From positions 353 to 64,352 of the forward strand of contig CAZASU010000003.1 in the NCBI GenBank assembly GCA_964487785.1: a stretch of 64,000 nucleotides of DNA. The letters are read 5' to 3'. The notes under the pieces were generated by a model that saw only the letters and a program-made list of their open reading frames with translations, ran no database searches and was not told the origin of the DNA. The position numbers and the translations under genes were made by a program. Shown here piece by piece: positions 2,465-64,000 of this stretch (position 1 is its first letter; the number at the start of each line of letters is the position of its first letter). The stretch is from an uncultured Gemmatimonadaceae bacterium. GTDB taxonomy: Bacteria; Gemmatimonadota; Gemmatimonadetes; Gemmatimonadales; GWC2-71-9.

Positions 2465-2465
2465 G

Positions 2466-2651
2466 AGGGTCGAGGGTCAGGAGTCGGGAGTCGGGGAGTC
2501 AGGAGTCTGCAACGGTCTCCTCATCCCGAGCAAAGCGAGGGACCTACTGCGCCGGCTTCCGGACGGTACGAAGTGGGTCCTTCGCTGCGCTCAGGATGAG
2601 GACGAATCTTGTGACTGAGGTTCCCGACTCCTGACTCCTGACTCCCGACTC
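2466..2651. repeat. composite palindromic element: tandem GGAGTCRG octamer arms plus GC hairpin core
   Basis: Left arm gggtcaggagtcgggagtcggggagtcaggagtc. Right arm cccgactcctgactcctgactcccgactc (its reverse complement). Core stem tcctcatcccgagcaaagcgagggacc / gggtccttcgctgcgctcaggatgagga. Fills the convergent gap between the stops at 2464 and 2653. Confidence 0.85.
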
Positions 2652-2652
2652 A

Positions 2653-4065
2653 TCACTTCTGCATCTCCTGTACGATTCCCGAGTATAGCCTCAGCCCGAA
2701 CTCGATGTTCTCCAGCGAGAGCCGCTCATTGATGCCGTGGACGCTGTGGCGGTTCTCGTCCAGCTCCACCAGCCAGGGGTCGATACCGTAGCAGATGACA
2801 CCGGCCGACGCGTAGTACGGCCGGTCCGATGCGCCGGCGCTGACCGGTGTGGCGATCGGGACGCCGGGAAGGAGCCGGCGGGCCACTCGCTCGATGGCGT
2901 GAAAGAGCTCGGTATCGAGCGGCGCGTCGTAGCGCGGCGCCATGTCTCCGATGGACTCGAGGGTGATCTTCGGATCGGCGATGATGCCTTCCAGCGTCCG
3001 GCGGAATGCGGTCGTGTCCTGGTCCGGCAGAAGGCGTATGTCCAGCTCCGCCGAGGCCTGCCGCGGAATGCTATTCGTCTTGTCGGATCCGGTCAGCACC
3101 GTGGGCGTGACCGTGTTCCGGAGCAGCGCGTTCCGCTCCGGCTCGCTCAGGATCCAGGCCCGTCCCCGTTTGCTGCGCAACGCGCCCGCGGCATCCGCCA
3201 GCCAGGTCCGCTGCTCGCCCGTCTGGTAGCGGGATTGGGCCTTGAAGAAACGATCCACTGCTGGGGTCAACCGTACCGGCGTCTGCCAGGCTGAAACCCG
3301 GGCCAACGCCTTCACCAGCCGCTCAACAGGATTGTCTCCCAACGGCACCGACCCATGCGATCCGGTGCCCCGCGCGATCAGCTTCTTCCACCAGGTGCGC
3401 TTCTCGCCCACGTCGATCCCGAACCAGAGGGGACGGCCGTTCTCCACTCGAGTGTCAGCGCCTTCGGTGAGGACGTACTCGATGCCACTCACTAAGTCCG
3501 GATGCCGCTCGATGAAGGTGCGCGTGCCCAGCCCGCCGACCTCTTCATCGGCGTTGGCGATGTAGACCAGATCTCGCTTTAGTGAGAGGCCCGCGCGCTT
3601 GACGGCAATGAAGGTGGAGAGCTGAATGATGCCATGCCCCTTCATGTCCAGGGCTCCGCGTCCCCACACGTACCCGTCCTTGGTCTCGCCCCCGAATGGG
3701 TCCACCGACCAGTCGCCCCTGGTGGCAGGTACCACATCCATATGATGGATCAGCGCAATCGCTTTCCCCGGGCCGGTTCCCTTCAACCGGGCGTAGAAAT
3801 TGGCTCGACCGGCTCCCAGCTCGGCCGTGTCGAGGATGTGTCCCTCGATCCCCTCCCTGGCCAGCACCTCCTTGAGCCACCGCGCGGTGGCCAGCTCGTT
3901 CCCCGGCGGATTGCTGGTATTGATCCGGAGATACTCGGAGAGCCGCTGCGCGGTCTCGTTGCGCAGCTTGGCATAATCAAAGGCCGGCGCCTGCGCGGCG
4001 GCGGGCACCGAGAGCGCGAACAGGAGTGCGGCCGGTCGGGTGAGCGGACGGACAAGGCTGATCAT
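2653..4065 (-). CDS. M20/M25/M40 family metallopeptidase, secreted
   Basis: 470-aa ORF. Signal peptide MISLVRPLTRPAALLFALSVPAAAQA. Motifs HHMDVVP, GRGALDMKG and ADEEVGG. Its ATG overlaps the upstream stop (ATGA at 4062-4065). Confidence 0.85.
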   Translation of the reverse strand: MISLVRPLTRPAALLFALSVPAAAQAPAFDYAKLRNETAQRLSEYLRINTSNPPGNELATARWLKEVLAREGIEGHILDTAELGAGRANFYARLKGTGPGKAIALIHHMDVVPATRGDWSVDPFGGETKDGYVWGRGALDMKGHGIIQLSTFIAVKRAGLSLKRDLVYIANADEEVGGLGTRTFIERHPDLVSGIEYVLTEGADTRVENGRPLWFGIDVGEKRTWWKKLIARGTGSHGSVPLGDNPVERLVKALARVSAWQTPVRLTPAVDRFFKAQSRYQTGEQRTWLADAAGALRSKRGRAWILSEPERNALLRNTVTPTVLTGSDKTNSIPRQASAELDIRLLPDQDTTAFRRTLEGIIADPKITLESIGDMAPRYDAPLDTELFHAIERVARRLLPGVPIATPVSAGASDRPYYASAGVICYGIDPWLVELDENRHSVHGINERLSLENIEFGLRLYSGIVQEMQK

Positions 4066-4827
4066 CGAGTCTCCAGAAGCATGCGGCCGGCCAGCTCCTT
4101 GACCAGCTTGGCGCTGACAGCCGCGGTGACCCCGGTCCGATCGGCGGCCGGATTGAACTCCACGAAGTCGGCACCCACCAGCGGTGCCGTAAGCGACTGA
4201 AGGACGGCGAGCGCCTGGCGCACCGAAAAGCCGCCCGCCTCACGGTGGGAGATCCCAGGTACCAGCCCGGGCTCGATCACGTCGAGGTCGAACGACACAT
4301 AGACTGGCGTGTCGAATTCCGGCTTCATCCCATCGCGCCAATCCTTCATCTCGATCACCTCCACCCCAAAGCGCTGCGCCTGCTCCCGCTGGTGCCCTGT
4401 CATCGTGCGGATACCCACCTGGACCAGCCGGTCGGCCAGGCCTTCCTCCATCACCCGGGCGAACGGGCAGGCGTGCGAGTAGCGATCACCCTGGAACTCA
4501 TCGTGGAGATCTCCGTGGGCGTCGAAGTGGAGGATGCTGAGCCGGGGATGAAAGGGCCGAAAGCCGCGCAGGACTGGATAGGTGATCGAGTGGTCGCCGG
4601 ACCTGTGCTGGATCCTCGTCCGCAGCCGGAGTCAGGTCGCCCTCATCATCCAAGGCCGCGGTGCTGAGATCGACGCCGAGCTCGGTCCAGGGATTCCCGG
4701 CTTCAGACCAGAGCGCCTGCCGGATGACCGGCGGCGCTCCCGCCGTGCCTCGCAGATAGGAGGAGCTGCCATCGTAGCAGACGCCGAGCAACGCTACTCT
4801 GGAAGGGGCCACCGCCTTGGGACTCAC
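4062..4827 (-). pseudogene. arginase/agmatinase/formiminoglutamase-fold hydrolase, interrupted by a single frameshift near 4600
   Basis: The N-terminal 76 codons are in ORF 4498..4827. The rest continues in the frame of ORF 4062..4454, which is open upstream to 4631 and encodes SGDHSITYPVL, ILHFDAHGDL and SFDLDVIEPG (metal-site motifs of the fold). The two frames meet at 4599-4605. Confidence 0.8.
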
Positions 4828-6383
4828 TCAGCCAGGGTCCCCAAATGGGTTTGGCGCTCGAGCCGGGTGAACCCCGCCGCAGCCTCAGGTTCGGGCGCCA
4901 GGAGCGACACCAGGATGCCGGCAAGGAAGGACAGCGGCAGGGTCACGAGCGCCGGATTCTTCAGCGGGAACCAGGCGTTACCGTGCCCCAGGATTTCCAC
5001 TTGAATGGTGGGCGAGAAATAAATCAAAGCCAGGGTGGCGAGGGTCCCGGTGGCCATGCTGGTGACTGCGCCGGCAGTGGTGTAGCGCCTCCAGAAGATC
5101 GCGAGCACCAGGGCAGGAAAGTTGGCACTCGCCGCGATGGCGAAGGCCAGCGACACCATGAAGGCAACGTTTTGCCCCTTGAAGGTGATGCCCAGCCCCA
5201 CCGCCACGACGCCGAGCGCCAGCGTTGCGATCCGGGCGACGCGGAGCTGCTCCCGGGCATCGGCGCGCCCTTTCCGCACCACGCTGACCCAGAGATCATG
5301 CGAGAGGGCGGCGGCGCCCGAGAGGGTAAGACCCGCCACCACGGCGAGGATGGTGGCGAACGCGACCGCGGCGATGAATCCCAGAAACGGGGTGCCTCCC
5401 AGCAGCTCGGCAAGCAGCGGAGCGGCCATGTTGCCACCCTTGTCCACAGCCCTGATCGTGTCCGGGCCTATCAGCACCATGGCTCCAAAGCCCAGGATGA
5501 AGGTGAGCAGATAGAAGAGCCCGATGAGACCGGTGGCAATGAAGACCGAGGTGCGGGCCGCGCGAGCGTCCGGCACGGTGTAAAATCGCATCAGGATATG
5601 GGGCAGTCCTGCCGTGCCGAACATCAGGGCCATCCCCAGCGAGATGGCGTCGAGTGGGTTCGATACCAGCTTGCCCGGCGCCAGTACCCCGGCACCGTAG
5701 CGCTCCGCTGCCGCGGCAAACAGCGCGGCAGGACTCATGTGGAACCGCAGCAGCACGAGCAGGGCGAGCAGCAATGCACCGCTCATGAGCAGCACCGCTT
5801 TTACGATCTGTACCCAGGTCGTCGCGATCATCCCGCCGAAGAGTACATATCCGATCATCACGATCCCGACCAGGACGATGGCATGCTCGTAACTGAATCC
5901 GAACATGAGCCGGATCAGCCCGCCGGCGCCCACCATTTGCGCGATGAGATAGAGCGTCACCGTGGCCAGGGTCCCCAGCGCGGCCGCGATGCGCACCGGG
6001 GTCTGCCGCAACCGAATGGCCACCACGTCGGCGAAGGTGTACCGGCCCAGGTTCCGCAGCGGCTCGGCAATGAGGAAGAGCACCACCGGCCAGCCGACCA
6101 GCCAGCCGGTCGAGTAGATCAGCCCGTCAAATCCGGTGGTCGAGACCAGCCCCGCAATCCCGAGGAAGGACGCCGCGCTCATGTAGTCGCCCGCCAGGGC
6201 AAAGCCGTTCTGCCCGGCGCTGATGGTGCGCCCCGCGGCGTAGAAGTGTTCGGTGGTGTGGGTGCGGCGCGCCGCCCAGAACGTGATCCCGAGGGTGATG
6301 CTGATGAAGACAAAGAAGAACGCCATAGCCACGGCGTTGGGTTGCCCGATGGCGGTATCGGCCGCGGCCTGATTTAGGGTCAT
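4824..6383 (-). CDS. actP: cation/acetate symporter ActP (sodium:solute symporter family)
   Basis: Within ORF 4824..6437; start taken at MTLNQAAADTAIGQPNAVAMAFFF, whose ATG overlaps the DUF485 stop. TTEHFYAAGR and GDYMSAASFLG are typical of ActP. Preceded by its usual DUF485 partner. Confidence 0.85.
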   Translation of the reverse strand: MTLNQAAADTAIGQPNAVAMAFFFVFISITLGITFWAARRTHTTEHFYAAGRTISAGQNGFALAGDYMSAASFLGIAGLVSTTGFDGLIYSTGWLVGWPVVLFLIAEPLRNLGRYTFADVVAIRLRQTPVRIAAALGTLATVTLYLIAQMVGAGGLIRLMFGFSYEHAIVLVGIVMIGYVLFGGMIATTWVQIVKAVLLMSGALLLALLVLLRFHMSPAALFAAAAERYGAGVLAPGKLVSNPLDAISLGMALMFGTAGLPHILMRFYTVPDARAARTSVFIATGLIGLFYLLTFILGFGAMVLIGPDTIRAVDKGGNMAAPLLAELLGGTPFLGFIAAVAFATILAVVAGLTLSGAAALSHDLWVSVVRKGRADAREQLRVARIATLALGVVAVGLGITFKGQNVAFMVSLAFAIAASANFPALVLAIFWRRYTTAGAVTSMATGTLATLALIYFSPTIQVEILGHGNAWFPLKNPALVTLPLSFLAGILVSLLAPEPEAAAGFTRLERQTHLGTLAE

Positions 6384-9252: not shown

Positions 9253-10341
9253 TTAGCCAAGCTTTTCTTTGATATATCTGCGGATGTCGAGGCTCGCGCT
9301 CTCCATTGGTGCATAGTAGCCGTGCTGGAAGACCCGCGACTGCATCCCGCGCTGGACGTTCTCACAGATGACCCAATCCTGGCGGTTGACCAGGTCCCAG
9401 AAGTTCACCGCGTCGGCCGGGTTGAAGTCCGGCAGTTGAATCTCGGACGGATGAAAGAGGAAGTCGCACACCACCCGGGTACGACCCGGTCCTTGCGGCC
9501 ACAGGGTATACGTGGTGACGTGGTCGGCCGAGAGACTGATGAGGAAGTTCGGATAGATCAGTTCTCCCTTGTGGCGGATGCGCTCATCGTCATTGAGCCC
9601 ATCGAACGGGCTGCGGTTGGTCGTTCCACTCTCGGTGAACGTCCAGGCGCCCTCACGGTGCGGGATGCCCCGCTCCCAGTCCAGCTCTGACCCGCCCCCC
9701 TGCTTGAAGGCCGGCACCAGCCGGCACAGCTCGGGATGCACCGGCCCGCAGTGATAGCACTCGTTGTAGTTCTCCAGTAACACCTTCCAGTTGGCCTCCA
9801 CGTCGTACTCGATCCGCCACCCCGAGCGGAGCTGCGCGAGCGGATACCGCCGAAGCCGTTCCGGCACCTCCCCCAGCTGGGACACCAGACCGTAATTGCG
9901 GCTGGACGCTTCGGCAGGCGTGAGGTTGACGAAGAAGAAACCGCCCCAGCTCTCGATTCCCACCGGGTGGAGGCCGAGGCTGGTCCTGGTGAAGCCCTCA
10001 TCTTCATCGAGGTGGGGAGCGGTCCGAAGAGCGCCGTCCAGGGTATAGGTCCAGGAGTGATACGGACAGCGAATCGTGCCCCCCAAGGATCCCCTGGAGC
10101 CCTCGAGCACCAGGCGCGACCCGCGGTGGCGGCAGACGTTGTAGTGGGCCGCGAGCGTGCCCTCCCGGGTCCGCACCACGAGGATGCTCTCACCCGCCAC
10201 CTCGACTACCAGGTAGTCGCCCGCGGCGGGCAGCTCCTCCTCACGACCGGCGCAGAACCATTCCCGGCAGAAGATGCGCTCCTTCTCACGGGCAAAGATC
10301 TCATCCGAGAAATAGAACTCGCGGCCGAGAGTGTGCTCCAT
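9253..10341 (-). CDS. Rieske [2Fe-2S] oxygenase alpha-subunit-like protein (paralog of 1343..2464)
   Basis: Within ORF 9253..10488; start at MEHTLGREFYF, whose ATG overlaps the cupin stop (ATGA at 10339-10343). Motifs CRHRGSRL, CPYHSWTY and NYNECYHCGPVHP. Confidence 0.85.
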   Translation of the reverse strand: MEHTLGREFYFSDEIFAREKERIFCREWFCAGREEELPAAGDYLVVEVAGESILVVRTREGTLAAHYNVCRHRGSRLVLEGSRGSLGGTIRCPYHSWTYTLDGALRTAPHLDEDEGFTRTSLGLHPVGIESWGGFFFVNLTPAEASSRNYGLVSQLGEVPERLRRYPLAQLRSGWRIEYDVEANWKVLLENYNECYHCGPVHPELCRLVPAFKQGGGSELDWERGIPHREGAWTFTESGTTNRSPFDGLNDDERIRHKGELIYPNFLISLSADHVTTYTLWPQGPGRTRVVCDFLFHPSEIQLPDFNPADAVNFWDLVNRQDWVICENVQRGMQSRVFQHGYYAPMESASLDIRRYIKEKLG

Positions 10342-24324: not shown

Positions 24325-25002
24325 GTGATTGATTCTCTCCGATCTGCTGCTTTCGCCCTAGTCCTCGCCACCGCCGCCGGCACCGGATTGGCCGGGTGCG
24401 CCCGTAATGCGCAGCGCGGTCTGGTGATCGGTGCCGCGGGGGGAGCGGTGGCCGGTGGCATCATCGGCGCGGTGGCCGGCTCGACCGCAAAGGGGGCCAT
24501 CATCGGTGCTGCCGTAGGTGGCGCCGCCGGTGCCATCATCGGCGATCAAATGGACCGCCAGGCAGCGGAGTTGAAGCAGAATGTAAAGGGTGCCAAGGTC
24601 GAGCGCGTCGGAGAAGGAATTCAGGTGACCTTCGCGTCCGGCCTGCTCTATGACTTCGATTCCGACGCGGTGAAGGCCGAGTCGAAAACGAACTTGCGAG
24701 AATTGGCAAACAGCCTCGGCAAGTACCCCGATTCCGATCTGCTCATCCTGGGCCACACGGACAGCGTGGGAACCGCGGAGTACAACAAGCGTTTGTCGGT
24801 GAAGCGGGCGGATGCGGCCGCCGAGTATCTCATTTCCCAGGGCGTGCGCCGCTCTCGGGTTGGCACGGGCGGACTGGGTGAGGAGGAGCCGGTCGCCTCC
24901 AACGACACCGAGTCCGGCCGGGGCCAGAACCGCCGAGTCGAGGTGGCTATCTACGCCAGCGAGAAGCAGCGGAATGAGGCCAGGCGGAAGGCCGGCGGGT
25001 AA
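24325..25002 (+). CDS. OmpA-family protein with glycine-zipper N-terminal segment
   Basis: Within ORF 24268..25002. GTG 24325 follows GAGGTG. Lipobox GLAGC. Gly-zipper GAAGGAVAGGIIGAVAG. OmpA C-like GHTDSVGTAEYNKRLSVKRADAAAEYL and NRRVEV. Confidence 0.85.
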   Translation: MIDSLRSAAFALVLATAAGTGLAGCARNAQRGLVIGAAGGAVAGGIIGAVAGSTAKGAIIGAAVGGAAGAIIGDQMDRQAAELKQNVKGAKVERVGEGIQVTFASGLLYDFDSDAVKAESKTNLRELANSLGKYPDSDLLILGHTDSVGTAEYNKRLSVKRADAAAEYLISQGVRRSRVGTGGLGEEEPVASNDTESGRGQNRRVEVAIYASEKQRNEARRKAGG

Positions 25003-25003
25003 A

Positions 25004-25042
25004 CAGCGGGGCAGCGGGGCAGCATGCTGCCCCGCCGTCAGC
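25004..25042. terminator. GC-rich palindrome built from GCGGGGCA units (putative bidirectional terminator)
   Basis: cagcggggcagcggggcagcatgctgccccgccg sits between convergent stops at 25000-25002 and 25043-25045. Perfect stem gcggggcagc/gctgccccgc around the gcatgc centre. Confidence 0.6.
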
Positions 25043-25939
25043 CTAGTTCTGCACCAGAATCAAGTACTTCGACGGAGACCAGAACTCCTCGGGTGCTACG
25101 ATCTCGACCACGCCCTTCACCTCGCCCTTCGGGTTCACGTCTCCAGACAGGTATTCCGGGCTCTGGCGGGACACAATTTTGTATTTCTTGTCGATCCGGG
25201 GCAGCGCGATTGAAAGCGTCTGGGTCTTGTCGATCGCGGTGAACGCCGCTGGATTCAGGTTACGGGCGGGCTCGAGCCGGGTGCCTCCGAACACGAGGAA
25301 CTTGGAGCCTTCCTTGGTGACGACCCCATTCTTGATCAGCTCATCCCTGGTCCCAACCGCATAGTAGACCGTGTTCTTGTAGGTGATCAGGCTGGCGACG
25401 GATCCTCTGAGCGAGTTTCTCTCCTTGCCCAGCGTGTCGACCTGCCCGGCCAGCAACGCGATCTGGTTCCTTTGGTCCGCGATGATCGCCTCATTTTCCT
25501 CCCGCTGCTGCTCCGCGGCGGTCTTGAGGTCCTCGATGGTCTTCTTGTAGGTCGCGATCTGGGCCAGAAGCCTGGCGTTTCGGATTCTCGCGTTCTTGGC
25601 GCGGGTCTCGGTGGCCGTCAGCTTGGCTTCGCTCTCGTTGAGGCGCGCGATGACCTGCTGAATCCGAGCCAGCGTCGCCTTGCGCTCCTCACGATCCTGG
25701 ATGGCGCCCGGAAGGCCGGGGTCGGCGCCGTCGGAAGTGAGGGCCACGGTCTTGGCCTTGGCCAGCTCGCTGTTCAGGTCACTTACGAACCGGGTCGTTT
25801 CCAGCACCTCGGTCAGCAGGCTGTCCTTCTGCGCCTCTGCCGCCCGGGCCTCGGCCAGGGCCCTGGTCAGCTCCGATTGCCGCCGATCGCATCCGGTGAC
25901 GGTCATGGCGATCAACAAGATCAGGCCAGCGTACCTCAT
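25043..25939 (-). CDS. coiled-coil lipoprotein, unknown function
   Basis: 298-aa ORF. MRYAGLILLIAMTVTGC lipobox, followed by a long heptad-like Ala/Glu/Lys/Leu-rich region. Confidence 0.6.
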   Translation of the reverse strand: MRYAGLILLIAMTVTGCDRRQSELTRALAEARAAEAQKDSLLTEVLETTRFVSDLNSELAKAKTVALTSDGADPGLPGAIQDREERKATLARIQQVIARLNESEAKLTATETRAKNARIRNARLLAQIATYKKTIEDLKTAAEQQREENEAIIADQRNQIALLAGQVDTLGKERNSLRGSVASLITYKNTVYYAVGTRDELIKNGVVTKEGSKFLVFGGTRLEPARNLNPAAFTAIDKTQTLSIALPRIDKKYKIVSRQSPEYLSGDVNPKGEVKGVVEIVAPEEFWSPSKYLILVQN

Positions 25940-40737: not shown

Positions 40738-42035
40738 GCGAGTTGCTAGGGTTAGGATCCGATCTGTCCTGGTGGGCCTGGACCCTGATGGCTATCGGCG
40801 TCATTGCCATCATCGGAGTGTTCGGCGCCCTTTTCTTGCCCGACTGGCCCAGCGACGATTTCACGATGGGGTTCGAGGCCGATCCGGGCTCGGAGACATT
40901 CGTGGAGTGGATTTCGTGTTACCTGAACAGCCCGATCTTGCAGGGAGGTGAGGTCACCATCCTTCAGAATGGCGACGCGTTCTTTCCCGCGATGCTGGAG
41001 GCGATCCGGAAAGCCAAGGATTCGGTCAATTTCGAGGTCTACATTTTCGAGCCTGACGAGATCGGGCGCCAGTTCATGGATGCGTTCAAGGACCGGGCGC
41101 GCGCGGGGGTGGAGGTCCGGCTGCTACTCGACGGCTTCGGTGGCATCAAGATGACGAAGCGCTATCGGGCGGAGCTTCGCGAGGCGGGTGTGACTGTCGC
41201 CCGCTTCCGCCCCTTTGGGCTGCGTAGTCTGGTGCGGTTCTATAAGCGGACCCACCGGCGGGCGATCGTCATCGACGGCCGGATAGGCTTCACTGGCGGC
41301 GCGGCGGTGTCGAAGAAGTGGAAGGGTAACGTCAGCAACCCGCATGAGTGGCGTGACAGCATGACCCGCGTGATGGGGCCCATGGTCGCCGGCATCCAAT
41401 CGGCCTTTGCGATCAACTGGGTCCACTGCTGCGGCGAAGTGATCGCCGGACCTCGCTTCTTCCCCACCTTCGAGCGCGGTCCTGGACCCTGCGGTCTCTC
41501 AGTGGTGAGCTCTCCATCCGACGCGATGCAGCCCATTCGCCTCCTCTTCTGGGTCAGCTTCATCAACGCGAAGCGGCGTCTCTGGATCTGCAACTCCTAT
41601 TTCATTCCTGACAACCGATTACGAAATGCCGCCATCGAGCGAGCCAAGAGCGGCGTGGACGTACGGGTCCTGGTGCCAGGCAATAATACCGACGCGCTGC
41701 CGGTTCAAGCGGCCGGGCGGAGCTACTACGAGGAGCTGCTCGCGGCCGGCGTCCGGATCTTCGAGTTTCAACCCGCGATGATGCATGCCAAGACCACCGT
41801 GGTGGATGGGGCCTGGTCCATCGTGGGGTCGGCCAATCTGGACGAGCGCAGCATGGAGCTCAACGAGGAGAACGTACTGGGGATCGCGGACAAAGACTTT
41901 GCCCAGGCTATCGAGCGGGGAGTGACGGCCGACTACGCGCGATCGCGGGAGATCCTGCTGGAGGAATGGCGGAAGCGCTCGATTTTTCGCCGCGGCGTGG
42001 AGCGGGTTTGTAAGATCTTGATCGAGCAGTATTAG
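40734..42035 (+). CDS. cls: cardiolipin synthase-like phospholipase D family protein
   Basis: 433-aa ORF. The GTG start overlaps the upstream stop (GTGA). Two PLD motifs: THRRAIVIDG...GG (Lys replaced by Arg) and MHAKTTVVDG...GSANLD. Confidence 0.8.
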   Translation: MSELLGLGSDLSWWAWTLMAIGVIAIIGVFGALFLPDWPSDDFTMGFEADPGSETFVEWISCYLNSPILQGGEVTILQNGDAFFPAMLEAIRKAKDSVNFEVYIFEPDEIGRQFMDAFKDRARAGVEVRLLLDGFGGIKMTKRYRAELREAGVTVARFRPFGLRSLVRFYKRTHRRAIVIDGRIGFTGGAAVSKKWKGNVSNPHEWRDSMTRVMGPMVAGIQSAFAINWVHCCGEVIAGPRFFPTFERGPGPCGLSVVSSPSDAMQPIRLLFWVSFINAKRRLWICNSYFIPDNRLRNAAIERAKSGVDVRVLVPGNNTDALPVQAAGRSYYEELLAAGVRIFEFQPAMMHAKTTVVDGAWSIVGSANLDERSMELNEENVLGIADKDFAQAIERGVTADYARSREILLEEWRKRSIFRRGVERVCKILIEQY

Positions 42036-42038
42036 GAC

Positions 42039-42139
42039 GAAGGCTATAGGCTATAGGCTATTGGCTCTTGGCTGATTACCTCTTGGCTCGTAGCTATGGT
42101 GGGGCTGCTCATGTCATAGCCCATAGCCAATAGCCTTCT
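42039..42139. repeat. palindromic element with tandem GGCTATWG octamer arms
   Basis: gaaggctataggctataggctattggct ... catagcccatagccaatagccttc are inverted, imperfect arms. Lies between convergent stops at 42035 and 42142. Confidence 0.8.
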
Positions 42140-42141
42140 CA

Positions 42142-42402
42142 TCACACCGGCCCGTTGAACGCCGGGTCGCAGACTCGGGTTCGGAGGTCCGTTTCCTGTC
42201 CTCGGTACCAGCCCCCCCGGAACTCGAAATGCCGCTCGTCCAGGAGGCGCGTGCCAAGCGCGTCTGTTCCCCGCTGCTGAACCTGCCAGAGTAGCACCCG
42301 GGCGCCCATTTCGGCAGCCGGCTCCCAGATGTCAGGTGTCAGGGGAGGGTACAGGCCCGCAAACTCCGGCTTCAATCTGGCCTGCCGGGCTGTCGAATCC
42401 AT
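42142..42402 (-). CDS. hypothetical protein
   Basis: Part of ORF 42142..42573; start guessed at MDSTARQARLKPEF. No motif recognised. Confidence 0.3.
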   Translation of the reverse strand: MDSTARQARLKPEFAGLYPPLTPDIWEPAAEMGARVLLWQVQQRGTDALGTRLLDERHFEFRGGWYRGQETDLRTRVCDPAFNGPV

Positions 42403-56480: not shown

Positions 56481-56540
56481 GTGTTCCTCTGAAGCCCTGC
56501 CCATTCATGAGATCGACTGCACAACGATAGGTCAACATAA

Positions 56541-56621
56541 TCGGGCGGACGGGCGGACGGGCGGTCGGTAGAAGCGGGGGGCGACTACCTGCCCCGCCGC
56601 CCCGCTGCCCCGCCTTCTTCC
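56541..56621. repeat. palindromic element with tandem octamer arms (GGGCGGAC x3 / TGCCCCGC x3)
   Basis: gggcggacgggcggacgggcggtcgg ... tgccccgccgccccgctgccccgcc, with an inner stem cggtagaag / cttctaccg. Lies just downstream of the SDR gene stop at 56625. Confidence 0.65.
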
Positions 56622-56624
56622 CTT

Positions 56625-57431
56625 CTACCGGCTGAGCAGCCCAGCGTCGATCACGAACGGAGATCCGGTGACATACCGGGCGCGGTCCGATGCCAGATAG
56701 AGCACCGCGTGGGCCACATCCTCCGGCTCGATCCAGGGCACCGGCAGCAGGTTACCCGCCGACCGTTCCGCGATCTCTTGGGGAGTGAGCCCCTCGAGGG
56801 CCGCCAGGCCATCGTTCATCGGGGTGTTGACTCCGGTAGGATGGATCGAGTTCACCCGGATTCCGTACTGGGCCAGCTCGATGGCCCAGGACTTAGTGAG
56901 ACCGGTCAGCCCCCACTTCGAGGCCGCATAGTGACTCAGCCGCCCCATGCCTCGGAGTCCGGCGACCGATGAGTTATTGATGATGACCCCTGCCCGCTGC
57001 CGGATCATCAGGGGAATCACCCGCCGCGCCACCAGCCAGGCACCCTTCAGGTTGATGTCGAGCATGGCGTCCCAGGCGTCCTCGGTCAGCTCGTGGGCCA
57101 GGCCATACCCGCAGATACCCGCGTTGTTGAAGAGGATGTCGATCCGGCCAAACCGCTCCACCGTGGCGGCGACCGCGCTGGTAACCGCCCCATCGTCCCG
57201 CACGTCGCCCACAAACGTCAGGCACTCGGTTCCGAGCTCGCTGCAGGTGGCAGCCAGGGACGCCAGCTCATCGCTCGACCCCATCTCGTAGCCGGGATAG
57301 CTGAGCGGCCGGGCTACGTCGAAGGCCGCGATCCTGGCTCCCTCCCGGGCGAGCGCCAGGGCGGTGGCCCTGCCCTGCCCGTGGGCAGCCCCGGTAATGA
57401 ACGCGACCTTGCCGGCAAACTCGCCCTTCAT
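56625..57431 (-). CDS. SDR family oxidoreductase (carveol-dehydrogenase-like subgroup)
   Basis: 268-aa ORF. TGAAHGQGRA cofactor motif, NNAG, and YAASKWG catalytic YxxxK. Confidence 0.85.
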   Translation of the reverse strand: MKGEFAGKVAFITGAAHGQGRATALALAREGARIAAFDVARPLSYPGYEMGSSDELASLAATCSELGTECLTFVGDVRDDGAVTSAVAATVERFGRIDILFNNAGICGYGLAHELTEDAWDAMLDINLKGAWLVARRVIPLMIRQRAGVIINNSSVAGLRGMGRLSHYAASKWGLTGLTKSWAIELAQYGIRVNSIHPTGVNTPMNDGLAALEGLTPQEIAERSAGNLLPVPWIEPEDVAHAVLYLASDRARYVTGSPFVIDAGLLSR

Positions 57432-61412: not shown

Positions 61413-62089
61413 CGGTGAGCCTGGCCCAGGATTTGGGATCGCACCCACTGCACGATCGAGTCGGCCAGCTCGTCGAGTACCGCGGCCGCTGTGCGGCCGG
61501 AGCTCTTGAGGACGCCGAAGGAGTGGTCGGCTCCCTCCACCGGGTGCAGCGTGGCCCGACTCCCCAATCGTTGACACACTCCGGTCATCAGCTCGGGCTG
61601 GGCAAACTGGTCACGGGTGCCCTGAAGGAAGAGCATGGGCAGCTCTACCCGGACGAGGTGATCGGCGCGACGGGTGCCGGGGCGGCCCGGCGGGTGGAGC
61701 GGAAAACCCAGGAAGACCAATCCTCGCACTCCGGGCAGCGAGCTCGCAGCCGCACCGGATGTCATGCGGCCGCCGAACGACTTGCCGCCGGCGATCAGCG
61801 GAAGGCCGGGCGCCACCTTCGCGGCCCAGGTCACCGCCGCGCGCACGGTTGCTTCGGCCACGGCTGGAGAATCCGGACGGCGGCCACCGGCTTCCATATA
61901 GGGGAACTGGTATCGCATGGTAGCCACGCCGCGGGTGGCGAGCGTCGCCGAGATGGACGTGAGGAATCCGTGCCGCATGCCGGCGCCGGCGCCGTGGGCA
62001 AGGACATAGAGGAGCCAGGCATCAGGTGGACGCTCGAGGAGGGCGGAGACCAAACCGAGGTCACCTAAATCCAGGTTGAGCTCTGTCAT
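61409..62089 (-). CDS. alpha/beta hydrolase of the COG3571 (KANL3/Tex30-like, dienelactone-hydrolase-related) type
   Basis: 226-aa ORF. VLAHGAGAGM, GGKSFGGRM (nucleophile elbow), LFLQGTRD and GADHSF. Confidence 0.7.
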   Translation of the reverse strand: MTELNLDLGDLGLVSALLERPPDAWLLYVLAHGAGAGMRHGFLTSISATLATRGVATMRYQFPYMEAGGRRPDSPAVAEATVRAAVTWAAKVAPGLPLIAGGKSFGGRMTSGAAASSLPGVRGLVFLGFPLHPPGRPGTRRADHLVRVELPMLFLQGTRDQFAQPELMTGVCQRLGSRATLHPVEGADHSFGVLKSSGRTAAAVLDELADSIVQWVRSQILGQAHR

Positions 62090-62126
62090 TCCGAGGATCC
62101 CTGAACGAGGTGAAGGTCCGAGGAAT

Positions 62127-64000
62127 CTACTCCCCTCGCTGAGTCAACCGCTCCAGCACGCCGCCCAGGTCCGGTGTGGTGGTCAGTACCTCCCGCAGCG
62201 GGTCGCGCTTCAGCTTCCTCATACGGGCCACCGCGTTCTGGATAGTGTAGCTCCGGATATCCAGCTTCGAGTTTACCTCGCTCCAGCGAATCGGCATGGA
62301 TACCGGAGCGCCGGGCAACGGCCGCACGCTGAACGGGGCCACCAGTAGCCGCCCGGCCCCAATCTGCAGGTAGTCGATATACACCTTCCCCCCTCGGCGG
62401 GAGACCTGTCGGGCGAGGGTCGTGATGTCAGGCAGCTCCGCCACGATCACCCGGGCGAGGAGCTCACCCAGACTACGCGCCTCGTTGTAGCGGCACTGGC
62501 CGCCAAGGGGGATCAGTACGTGGAGGCCGGACGAGCCGCTGGTCTTCACGAAGTTGGGCAACCCGATCTCCTCGCACAGCGCGTGGGTGGTCTGGGCAAC
62601 CCGGATTACATCGCTGAACGGCGCGTCCTTGGGATCCAGATCCAGCACACACCAGTCGGGACGGTCGATGCTCGATGTTCTGCTGGCCCACACATGGAGG
62701 GGGATGGTACCGAGGTTGGCCAGGTAGAGCAGGCCGGCTTCGTCATCGCAGACGAAGTAGTCGATCTCTCGCTCGGCCTGCTCACTCCACATCCGCTCGG
62801 TCCGGATCCAGTCGGGCACGAATCCGGGCGCGTCCTTTTGGAAGAATGACTTTCCGTTCACTCCATCGGGATATCGGGTGAGAACCACGGGCCGGTCGGC
62901 CAGGTAGGGCAGAATCCAGGGGCCTACGGCCCGGTAGTACTCGATCAGGTCGCCCTTGGTGTAGCCCTCGTCCGGCCAGAAAATCTTGTTCACGTTCGTG
63001 AACTCGGTGCGGGGCAGCGGGGCAGCGGGGCGGCTCGGCGGTACCCTCTGCTGCCCTCCCTTATGGGAAGGCTTCCTCGGTGAGCGGGCCCTGAGCGAAG
63101 CCGAAGGGCTCAGGGTGACACGTTCCTCCGGACCTGCTAAGTCTGCCCGGCCGCCCCGCTGCCCCGCCGCCCCGCTGCCGACGCACTCCTCCGGCTGCTT
63201 GTCGTCCCGAAACCGCAGGAACACCGGCTGCCGCAGAAGCCCCTCCTCGGTCCACTCGGTGAACTCCACCTCACACACCAGCCGCGGCTCCGTCCAGGTG
63301 GTCCCCTTCTCCTTTGGAACCGGCCCGCCGCAGGGTGGGTCAGCGCGCCGTATCTCGTCGAGCGTGGCCCGCACCTCGGCGAGCTGGACTCCGGTGAAAC
63401 CGCTCCCTGCCCTGCCGGAATAGATGAGGTCGCCCTCCACGTACTGGGCCAGATGCAGGGCCCCGAAGCCGGCGCGCGCACCTTTGGGGGCCGAGAACCC
63501 CACCACCACGAAATCATCAGCGCGGCGGGTCCTGACCTTGATCCAGGAGGACGATCGGCCCGCTCGATAGGGGGAGTCGGCACGCTTGGCCACTATTCCC
63601 TCGAGCCCCAGCTTCCGAACCTGCTGATAGAGGACCTCGCCCTCGCCCTCGAAGTGATCCAAAAAACGGATGAGGCCCGTCGGCGGCAGCAGCCTTCGCA
63701 GGAGCTCCTTCCTTGTCACCAGCGGCAACGGCCGCAAGTCGAAGTCTTCGGCGGCCAGAAGATCGAAAGCGAAGAAAGTGACCGGGTTCTCCACCGCCGC
63801 CCGGCGGATATCGAGTGCCCGTGTGAGCTTTGCCCGCTGCTGCAGCCGCTGAAAGCTGGGACGTCCAGACTCATCGAGCGCCACTACCTCGCCGTCCAGC
63901 AGCAACCGGCTCAAAGGCAGCGCGTCCACCGCGCGACTCACCTCGGGAAAAGAGGACGCCAGGTCGTTCCCATTGCGGGAGAAGAGGCGGGGTGGGGCGC
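62127..64000 (-). CDS. ligD: ATP-dependent DNA ligase LigD (ligase then polymerase/primase domains); 5' end outside window
   Basis: ORF 62127..63941, and the frame stays open to base 64000 (...LFSRNGNDLASSFPEV). Ligase/OB part: EGIVAKRADSPYRAGRSSSWIKVR...LRQPVFLRFRDDK. Pol domain: FTNVNKIFWPDEGYTKGDLIEYYR...SGSSGLHVLIPL. Confidence 0.9.
   Translation of the reverse strand, partial: APPRLFSRNGNDLASSFPEVSRAVDALPLSRLLLDGEVVALDESGRPSFQRLQQRAKLTRALDIRRAAVENPVTFFAFDLLAAEDFDLRPLPLVTRKELLRRLLPPTGLIRFLDHFEGEGEVLYQQVRKLGLEGIVAKRADSPYRAGRSSSWIKVRTRRADDFVVVGFSAPKGARAGFGALHLAQYVEGDLIYSGRAGSGFTGVQLAEVRATLDEIRRADPPCGGPVPKEKGTTWTEPRLVCEVEFTEWTEEGLLRQPVFLRFRDDKQPEECVGSGAAGQRGGRADLAGPEERVTLSPSASLRARSPRKPSHKGGQQRVPPSRPAAPLPRTEFTNVNKIFWPDEGYTKGDLIEYYRAVGPWILPYLADRPVVLTRYPDGVNGKSFFQKDAPGFVPDWIRTERMWSEQAEREIDYFVCDDEAGLLYLANLGTIPLHVWASRTSSIDRPDWCVLDLDPKDAPFSDVIRVAQTTHALCEEIGLPNFVKTSGSSGLHVLIPLGGQCRYNEARSLGELLARVIVAELPDITTLARQVSRRGGKVYIDYLQIGAGRLLVAPFSVRPLPGAPVSMPIRWSEVNSKLDIRSYTIQNAVARMRKLKRDPLREVLTTTPDLGGVLERLTQRGE
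63009..63179. repeat. composite palindromic element (GCGGGGCA octamer arms plus hairpin core) inside the ligD reading frame
   Basis: Left arm gcggggcagcggggcagcggggcgg. Right arm ccgccccgctgccccgccgccccgctgcc. Core ccctgagcgaagccgaagggctcaggg. 171 nt, translated as GSGAAGQRGG...RPAAPLPR between the Lig and Pol domains. Confidence 0.8.

Follow-up and report, generated by a model that had tools for sequence, protein, structure and literature searches.

Rickettsia palindromic elements (RPEs) are found between genes and also in frame within unrelated protein-coding genes, where they add a peptide while the host protein is preserved (PMC10969869). REPINs are built from inverted short repeats around a variable spacer, with both arms belonging to the same sequence group; they form long hairpins, are mostly extragenic and persist within their lineages (PMC3337134). 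Here we describe a 171-nt palindromic element that is read in frame inside the DNA-repair gene ligD, near one end of a 64,000-nt stretch of DNA (the window) from an uncultured Gemmatimonadaceae bacterium (assembly GCA_964487785.1, contig CAZASU010000003.1, positions 353 to 64,352 of the forward strand). The element is probably a partly decayed, in-frame composite to which two dispersed repeat families of Gemmatimonadales contributed, and the repeat in the ligD linker is best read as an old, tolerated passenger that was remodelled in place and that resembles both REPINs and RPEs.

Like RPEs, the repeats described here form dispersed families of palindromic elements (~100–150 nt for RPEs, 171 nt for the ligD element) that occur both between genes and in frame. 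However, RPE families have a conserved sequence and a conserved peptide, whereas the elements described here have arms of tandem 7–9-nt arrays around an interior that differs from copy to copy. Nearly half of the copies are intragenic in three RPE families, in contrast to ~10% in frame here, which is a crude estimate. The host belongs to another phylum, in which sequence kinship is not expected, and the two groups are set apart by host and by the lack of an Rfam match rather than by alignment. A sequence-only reading of the window had put forward RPEs as an analogue, and this holds for their behaviour, given the in-frame copies in other genes that we report below, but does not extend to membership of an RPE sequence family.

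With REPINs the likeness lies in the architecture. Here too, inverted arms that are matched within each element (on average 15.1 of 16 positions agree from arm to arm within an element, compared to 9.8 of 16 between elements) surround a non-conserved spacer and can form a long hairpin. The REP unit, however, is an imperfect palindrome of ~16–25 nt, whereas the arms here are direct tandem arrays without an internal palindrome, and where few REP groups are present per genome, we count at least 12 unit sequences. No RAYT transposase was identified by a crude motif scan of ~1.4 Mb. The extragenic bias of REPINs may have a counterpart in the 4–5 intergenic copies and one in-frame copy of the window, and in the 8 of 77 sites elsewhere that are in frame by a crude rule based on GC content at third codon positions (GC3). 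Two further groups share some of these properties. BIMEs are also mosaics of two repeat types, which here are the array arms and a pair of hairpin motifs that we call hpA. Bacterial MITEs are likewise small, non-coding and dispersed with occasional in-frame fusions, and have terminal inverted repeats, which are present in the ligD element; target-site duplications, a conserved interior and a parent insertion sequence, however, were not found here. In the literature, we found no description of these Gemmatimonadetes repeats or of tandem-array hairpins between convergent genes.

A palindromic element translated within a predicted LigD linker

The host gene lies on the minus strand, where the ORF (open reading frame) 62127..63941 is unbroken and continues beyond the window end. 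Pfam matches and identity to a full-length protein, P0001, assign 62127..64000 to the C-terminal 623 codons of ligD, with the stop codon at 62127-62129. P0001 has 873 residues in the order PE-Lig-Pol, is 100% identical to the window translation and carries the precomputed domains PF13298, PF01068, PF04679 and PF21686. In the 623-residue partial translation, Pfam detects DNA_ligase_A_M, DNA_ligase_A_C (the OB domain, which ends at residue 267) and LigD_Prim-Pol (from residue 347, 1.3e-85). Judged by these domains, the host gene is LigD, the predicted bifunctional ligase/polymerase of non-homologous end joining (NHEJ), with PE, ligase plus OB, and Prim-Pol domains in one intact ORF. Those relatives of P0001 for which a source is named are annotated as Gemmatimonadales. 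The gene order in relatives is Ku, LigD, an abhydrolase and a UvrD-exonuclease, the last three of which are also seen in the window.

The element spans 63009..63179 on the minus strand. Its 171 nt make exactly 57 codons and encode G524-R580 of P0001, or residues 274-330 of the partial translation, between the OB and LigD_Prim-Pol domains. In its reading frame (-0) it is free of stop codons and is translated as GSGAAGQRGG...RPAAPLPR; two of the six frames are open across the element. These results bear out the sequence-only reading, which had proposed a 171-nt, 57-codon palindrome within a continuous ligD ORF: the sequence, the ORF, the arms, the core stem and the comparison to shuffled sequences all agree with it, the Pfam boundaries (267 and 347) place the element between the OB fold and the Pol domain as claimed, and the reported peptide matches our translation exactly. 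The broader proposal, that palindromic DNA of a repeat family is translated in the Lig-Pol linker, gains support from the presence of the same families between genes in the window.

The outer inverted repeat consists of two 31-nt arms (63009-63039 and 63145-63175) that are 90% complementary and 105 nt apart. In the sense direction, the 5' arm (63143..63179, minus strand) is a G-rich array of the octamer GCGGGGCR that encodes GSGAAGQRGGRA (period 8, 4.6 copies by TRF), and it includes a canonical G-quadruplex motif at 63146-63173, identified by regular expression, which lies on the sense strand and is the sole such motif in ligD. The 3' arm (63009..63039, minus strand) is a C-rich inverse octamer array that encodes PPSRPAAPLPR; read on the plus strand, it contains 2.9 copies of GCGGGGCA at 63009-63031 (TRF), followed by GGCTCGGC. 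Between the arms, a central hairpin (63089..63119, minus strand), which encodes VTLSPSASLRA, has a core stem in which all 8 of 8 positions pair (63089-63096 with 63108-63115). In the sense direction this core reads as GTCACCCTGAGC, the initial 12 nt of forward hpA, fused to CCTTCGGCTTCGCTCAGGG, the core of inverted hpA. A second small hairpin at 63053..63072 (minus strand; sense GCCUUCCC-AUAA-GGGAGGGC) is found in both the minimum-free-energy and the centroid structures.

The sense RNA of 63000-63190 is predicted to fold with -123.2 kcal/mol (z = -5.9), and 0 of 200 shuffled sequences were as stable; the fold of the same region as DNA gives z = -4.9. The repeat character of the arms is also evident from the 15-mer GCGGGGCAGCGGGGC: when up to 2 mismatches are allowed, the window has 8 matches, compared to 1.85 ± 1.47 in shuffled sequence, where 0 of 100 shuffles reached 8. 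No second copy of the element interior was found in the window. By sequence comparison, the ligD element is a composite of two families, the array-armed palindromes and the hpA hairpin motif.

Related repeats at the linker site of LigD orthologues

We compared the linkers of 110 near-full-length homologues that are 74–93% identical over conserved columns, with motifs flagged by regular expressions. These linkers are hypervariable, range from 25 to 75 residues and are assembled from recurring pieces. A peptide of the 5' octamer array (AGQRGSGA or GEAGKRVS) directly follows PEECV in 77 of the 110 (about 70%), and the majority consensus of a 60-sequence alignment reads GSGxAGQRGSG. In the centre of the linker, 51 (about 46%) have an hpA-type motif (VTLSAAKG, VTLSPSA.LRAGSAKG or VIPSEARNL...IPRSARNDR), while the tail encoded by the 3' inverse array, RPAAP(P/L)PR, stands two residues ahead of the Pol domain in 24 (about 22%). 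Both arms occur together in 17 LigDs. In the DNA, the 5' array is (GCGGGNNR)n and its reverse complement forms the 3' array, with hpA, GTCAYYCYGAGCGNAGCGARGRR, in the centre. The inverted hpA core, with 2 mismatches, is present in the window, L204 and L015, plain forward hpA is found in L003, and the linkers of L001, L002 and L053 hold a complete in-frame hpA pair of 81 nt, the same size as an intergenic pair in the window (2520-2600). More distant LigDs, with identities of 65% or less, have linkers of 27–70 residues without these repeat motifs.

The occurrence of a similar repeat at the same linker position in relatives argues for an old, tolerated passenger rather than a recent insertion. 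The sequence-only reading had inferred a selfish or structured DNA element and suggested a test for clean insertion boundaries; taken literally, this would be a recent, single 171-nt selfish element placed in an otherwise repeat-free linker of this genome. Its length of exactly 57 codons and its symmetric arms would fit such an event, as would the absence of the 3' arm from the closest relatives. However, the 5' array and the central hairpin are both present in those same nearest relatives, P0002/L204 and L015, and are common to relatives at 87–93% identity and beyond; the pieces counted above lie at the same place in many orthologues; and the window holds no second copy of the interior. A target-site duplication, which the earlier reading had suggested looking for, is not visible at the element. 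The ortholog comparison thus largely refutes the recent single-insertion version, which we regard as very improbable.

An imperfect direct repeat flanks part of the element: 63180-63194 and 63117-63131 agree at 12 of 15 positions and encode PEECV and PEERV. We rejected it as a target-site duplication, as it brackets the 5' arm alone and is missing in L204. It probably reflects chance or the likeness of acidic linker stretches.

Octamer arrays inside an ORF also bring to mind coding simple-sequence repeats (contingency loci), which likewise have tandem units that are not a multiple of 3. In a phase-variation switch of this kind, adding or removing a single 8-nt unit would put the codons beyond the ligase domain out of frame and turn Pol off, and a change in the second array might restore the frame. 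The arrays are stop-free in all frames and the two of them flank a hypervariable spacer, both of which would suit a switch. However, the arrays have only 3–5 units, the spacer of the element contains stops in the other two sense frames, and all 110 near-full-length homologues are in frame; shorter database entries that lack the N-terminal domain are consistent with truncation at contig ends and not with frameshifts. The repeats further differ from contingency loci in their few units, their arrangement as inverted pairs, their location mostly outside genes and the absence of frameshifted alleles among the 110 homologues. We therefore give a phase switch hardly any credence.

A stem as stable as that of the ligD element could instead be a functional cis-element, with the hairpin or G-quadruplex serving as an attenuator or pause site, as an internal 3' end that gives a PE-Lig-only product, or as a stability element that tunes NHEJ expression. 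This would be in keeping with the predicted fold (-123 kcal/mol), with the sense-strand position of the sole canonical G-quadruplex motif in ligD, with arms that stay near-perfect over diverged orthologues while the spacers do not, and with intergenic relatives that are located where terminators are expected. Directly after the element there is also a small terminator-like hairpin of 6 bp with a T-rich tail (63003-62988, minus strand), which lies inside the conserved FTNVNKIFWP codons. However, both arms are present in only 17 of the 110 orthologues, and the closest relatives lack the 3' arm. Among 24 ortholog linkers that were folded, z fell below -5 only in the window, L002 and L004 and was above -1 in 15. 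The long stem is not directly followed by the U-tract or T-run of an intrinsic terminator, a terminator scan of the region found 2 sites compared to 0.8 ± 1.2 expected, which is not significant, and the same arrays are read in frame at unrelated positions of AlaRS, RNase HII and other genes. We consider a functional cis-element quite unlikely; in particular, the folds of most orthologous linkers, which are no more stable than those of shuffled sequence, speak against a role of the hairpin in ligD expression.

Two other origins for the linker organisation were rejected. An assembly artefact is incompatible with dozens of independent assemblies that show the same organisation, and the idea that lig and pol were once separate genes, with the element as a terminator between them that was kept on fusion, fails because distant LigDs are already fused and have short, repeat-free linkers. 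Among LigDs at 65–66% identity, the linker of L013 (within 3001-5580) carries a tandem array of ~10 nt, ACGGGAGCRG, at the LigD linker position, and in that of L017 a purine-rich arm pairs with a pyrimidine-rich arm (z = -2.1). These other repeat types suggest that the linker site attracts repeats beyond the clade with GCGGGGCA.

Dispersed repeat families between and within genes

The first of the two families, the array-armed palindromes, has a G-rich tandem array of 7–9-nt units on the 5' side, its C-rich reverse complement on the 3' side and a non-conserved spacer in between. A custom scan for inverted pairs of tandem arrays in 1.14 Mb of Gemmatimonadales DNA yielded 29 unique pairs of tandem 7–9-mers, built on at least 12 unit sequences, in which the gaps between arms (17–300 nt) are not conserved. 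The G-rich arm is on the 5' side in 27 of these 29 (p = 1.6e-6), and the ligD element conforms; the same polarity is seen in 12 of the 14 elements built on units other than GCGGGGCA. This G-first arrangement reads identically on both strands. An exact 23-nt octamer pattern was found in at least 120 genome stretches, and by their source names 74 of the 120 listed come from metagenome-assembled genomes (MAGs) of Gemmatimonadales or Gemmatimonadota. The 9 paired arrays and the 8 in-frame cases among the listed matches come without exception from these MAGs. The second family, hpA, usually takes the form of an inverted pair of ~80–100 nt. In the 1.44 Mb of DNA that we examined, 33 copies were found that do not belong to LigD linkers, often paired in inverted orientation over 79–135 nt. 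In a comparison of 62000-64000 with Rfam, a chance microRNA match was the sole result at E <= 1, and no family reached its gathering score anywhere in the window.

Besides the ligD element, the window holds 4–5 copies of these families, every one between ORFs, and in most of the ORFs on either side Pfam domains extend to the ends of the frame. Three of the copies fill gaps between convergent genes. The first, at 2465..2652, is a full-architecture palindrome of 188 nt that consists of a (GAGTCRGG)n arm, hpA, a loop, inverted hpA and a (CCYGACTC)n arm, with the 81-nt hpA inverted pair at 2520-2600. A Rieske oxygenase gene and an M20 peptidase gene converge on it, and it takes up precisely the space between them; as RNA it folds with -127.7 kcal/mol, and each of its six frames is interrupted by stop codons. 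The second, at 25003..25042, is a hairpin with an array of GCGGGGCA and fills the gap between an OmpA-family gene (ending at 25002) and a convergent ORF (ending at 25043). The third, at 42036..42141, is armed with heptamers, (AGGCTAT)n and (ATAGCCN)n, and fills the gap between a PLD-like gene (ending at 42035) and a convergent ORF (ending at 42142); its architecture is like that of the ligD element, and its unit sequence is unrelated. Because three copies fill gaps between convergent genes, we infer that the intergenic copies could act as terminator-like hairpins at the 3' ends of transcripts.

The other intergenic copies differ in setting. A hairpin with a (GCCCCGCY)3 array at 56567..56629 lies between a minus-strand SDR gene (ending at 56625) and a minus-strand ORF (starting at 56504), and together with ligD and 25003-25042 it makes up the three loci of octamer arrays in the window. 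A separate tandem octamer array, (CGGGCGGA)3.4, adjoins it on the upstream side in the same intergenic region (56542-56568). An hpA-like hairpin, GTCATTCCGAGG...CCGAGGAATC, at 62087..62128 (-14.7 kcal/mol) takes up the short stretch that separates the ligD stop codon (62127-62129) from the ATG (62089) of the abhydrolase gene downstream, with an overlap at either end.

Elsewhere in Gemmatimonadales, we scored an array site as in frame when it was free of stop codons and the GC3 of both flanks was coding-like, a crude rule by which 8 of 77 evaluable sites (~10%) are read in frame. Pfam confirms six gene families as hosts, namely NadE, DnaE-like, ImuB-like, AlaRS, RNase HII and radical SAM. The NadE copy lies in the linker between the CN_hydrolase and NAD_synthase domains and encodes SGAAGQRGGR...VPPSRRPAAPL, which is strikingly like the ligD peptide. 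DnaE-like polymerase genes with in-frame arrays were found in two MAGs, and in the ImuB-like Y-family polymerase the array stands between IMS and IMS_C. The in-frame arrays or arm pairs in other genes are at L142 3921-4028, L117 6294-6644, L145 660-680 and 2538-2558, L118 5251-5271, L121 5079-5099 and L120 2339-2359. Several of the hosts are DNA-repair or replication genes, in numbers too small for an enrichment. A comparison of the 57-residue peptide with a protein collection gave one candidate that shared words and none that scored, probably because the word index copes poorly with low-complexity sequence, so that this result does not speak for absence.

The variation of units among loci also fits a purely local account, in which octamer microsatellites grew in place, palindromy arose by template switching or from protein-level causes, and no dispersed or mobile element was involved. 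Local generation predicts array units that vary by locus, arrays are classic substrates for slippage, and the spacers are not conserved. In addition, neither a target-site duplication (10 paired elements) nor a transposase (crude motif scan) was found, and the step from VTLSAAKG to VTLSPSA.LRAGSAKG resembles a nested inverted duplication. However, the combination of the unit GCGGGGCA with the inner end GCGGGGCGGCCG is found again in numerous MAGs and at numerous unrelated loci, the unit GGAGTCAG is found both in the window and in L031, hpA is a dispersed motif of conserved sequence, and the NadE and ligD copies have nearly the same arm ends. We rate a purely local origin of the whole element as improbable.

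Origin and persistence of the linker repeat

The composite of dispersed families probably arose as follows. The repeat DNA would reside mostly in the gaps between genes, and in an ancestral LigD of this clade one copy would have landed in the variable linker between Lig and Pol. Later remodelling may have included slippage of the octamers, collapse or nested duplication of the hpA pair, and loss or gain of the 3' arm. The copy might have persisted because the linker tolerates variation in length and sequence and because stop-free arrays encode Gly/Ala/Arg-rich or Pro/Ala-rich peptides; only variants that kept a multiple of 3 and an open frame would have survived. Octamer arrays in general should be easily tolerated in genes since they are stop-free in all six frames. 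We infer both insertion as the origin and neutrality in LigD.

Several observations weigh against this history or temper it. Element interiors and spacers are unrelated between copies, also among the LigD orthologues that have both arms, so that a single ancient insertion followed by simple decay is not sufficient. The octamer arrays are near-perfect in orthologues with 20–25% protein divergence, where a neutral relic would have blurred, and slippage, homogenisation or selection is needed to account for them. No target-site duplication was seen at 63009/63179 or in the flanks of 10 paired elements, and a crude motif scan of six-frame translations of ~1.4 Mb, a small sample, gave no match to RAYT/Y1 transposases. 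With unrelated spacers, near-perfect arrays and neither a target-site duplication nor a transposase, the repeat may instead have grown in place or been re-inserted repeatedly at the LigD linker site. The genome scan gives lower bounds for its pattern counts and was biased toward the GCGGGGCA unit, and the coding and non-coding calls outside the window rest on the crude GC3 rule, which left many sites unclassified. Finally, the AlphaFold2 model of P0001, built from 60 homologues, has a mean pLDDT of 53, with 25–31 in the linker and values below 50 also in the adjoining OB domain, and its quality does not suffice to establish disorder as a property of the linker in particular.

The shared architecture prompts a bolder hypothesis, which we hold to be rather unlikely. 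Gemmatimonadales may carry an undescribed repeat class that is defined by architecture, with matched arms of 7–9-nt arrays, locus-specific units and G-first polarity, whose formation or upkeep would call for a dedicated process; the conservation of arrays in LigD, DnaE2-like and ImuB-like linkers could then reflect selection on the hairpin or G-quadruplex. If this were true, candidate processes would include an unknown enzyme system or templated hairpin growth at the ends of convergent transcription units, and selection on nucleic-acid structure in genes of the DNA-damage response could replace passive tolerance.

If the ligD repeat is instead an old, tolerated passenger, hairpin-forming repeat DNA that serves as a translated linker in essential or repair genes would extend beyond Rickettsia to a free-living soil phylum. 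The linker repeat would also span a long period of evolution, as its site is common to the whole LigD clade. The Lig-Pol linker of LigD appears to tolerate 27–75 residues of almost arbitrary sequence, and AGQRGSGA, RPAAPLPR, VTLSAAKG and VIPSEARNL in this lineage would be translated repeats and not protein motifs. Neither the literature nor Rfam yielded a description of this architecture, in which tandem-array arms match within each element and the G-rich arm comes first, and it is likely to confuse gene callers, assemblers and predictions of domain boundaries in Gemmatimonadales MAGs. Most worth attention are the family defined by its architecture, its G-first polarity and its recurrence in the linkers of DNA-repair genes.

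Other features of the window

Six canonical G-quadruplex motifs occur in the window, all on the minus strand, at 63146 (in the 5' arm of the ligD element), 40518, 30463, 26398, 7148 and 2268. The longest inverted repeat in the window pairs 1893-1978 with 9727-9812; its arms are 86 nt long, 79% complementary and 7.7 kb apart, and they may belong to opposite-facing paralogous genes or mark the ends of an element.

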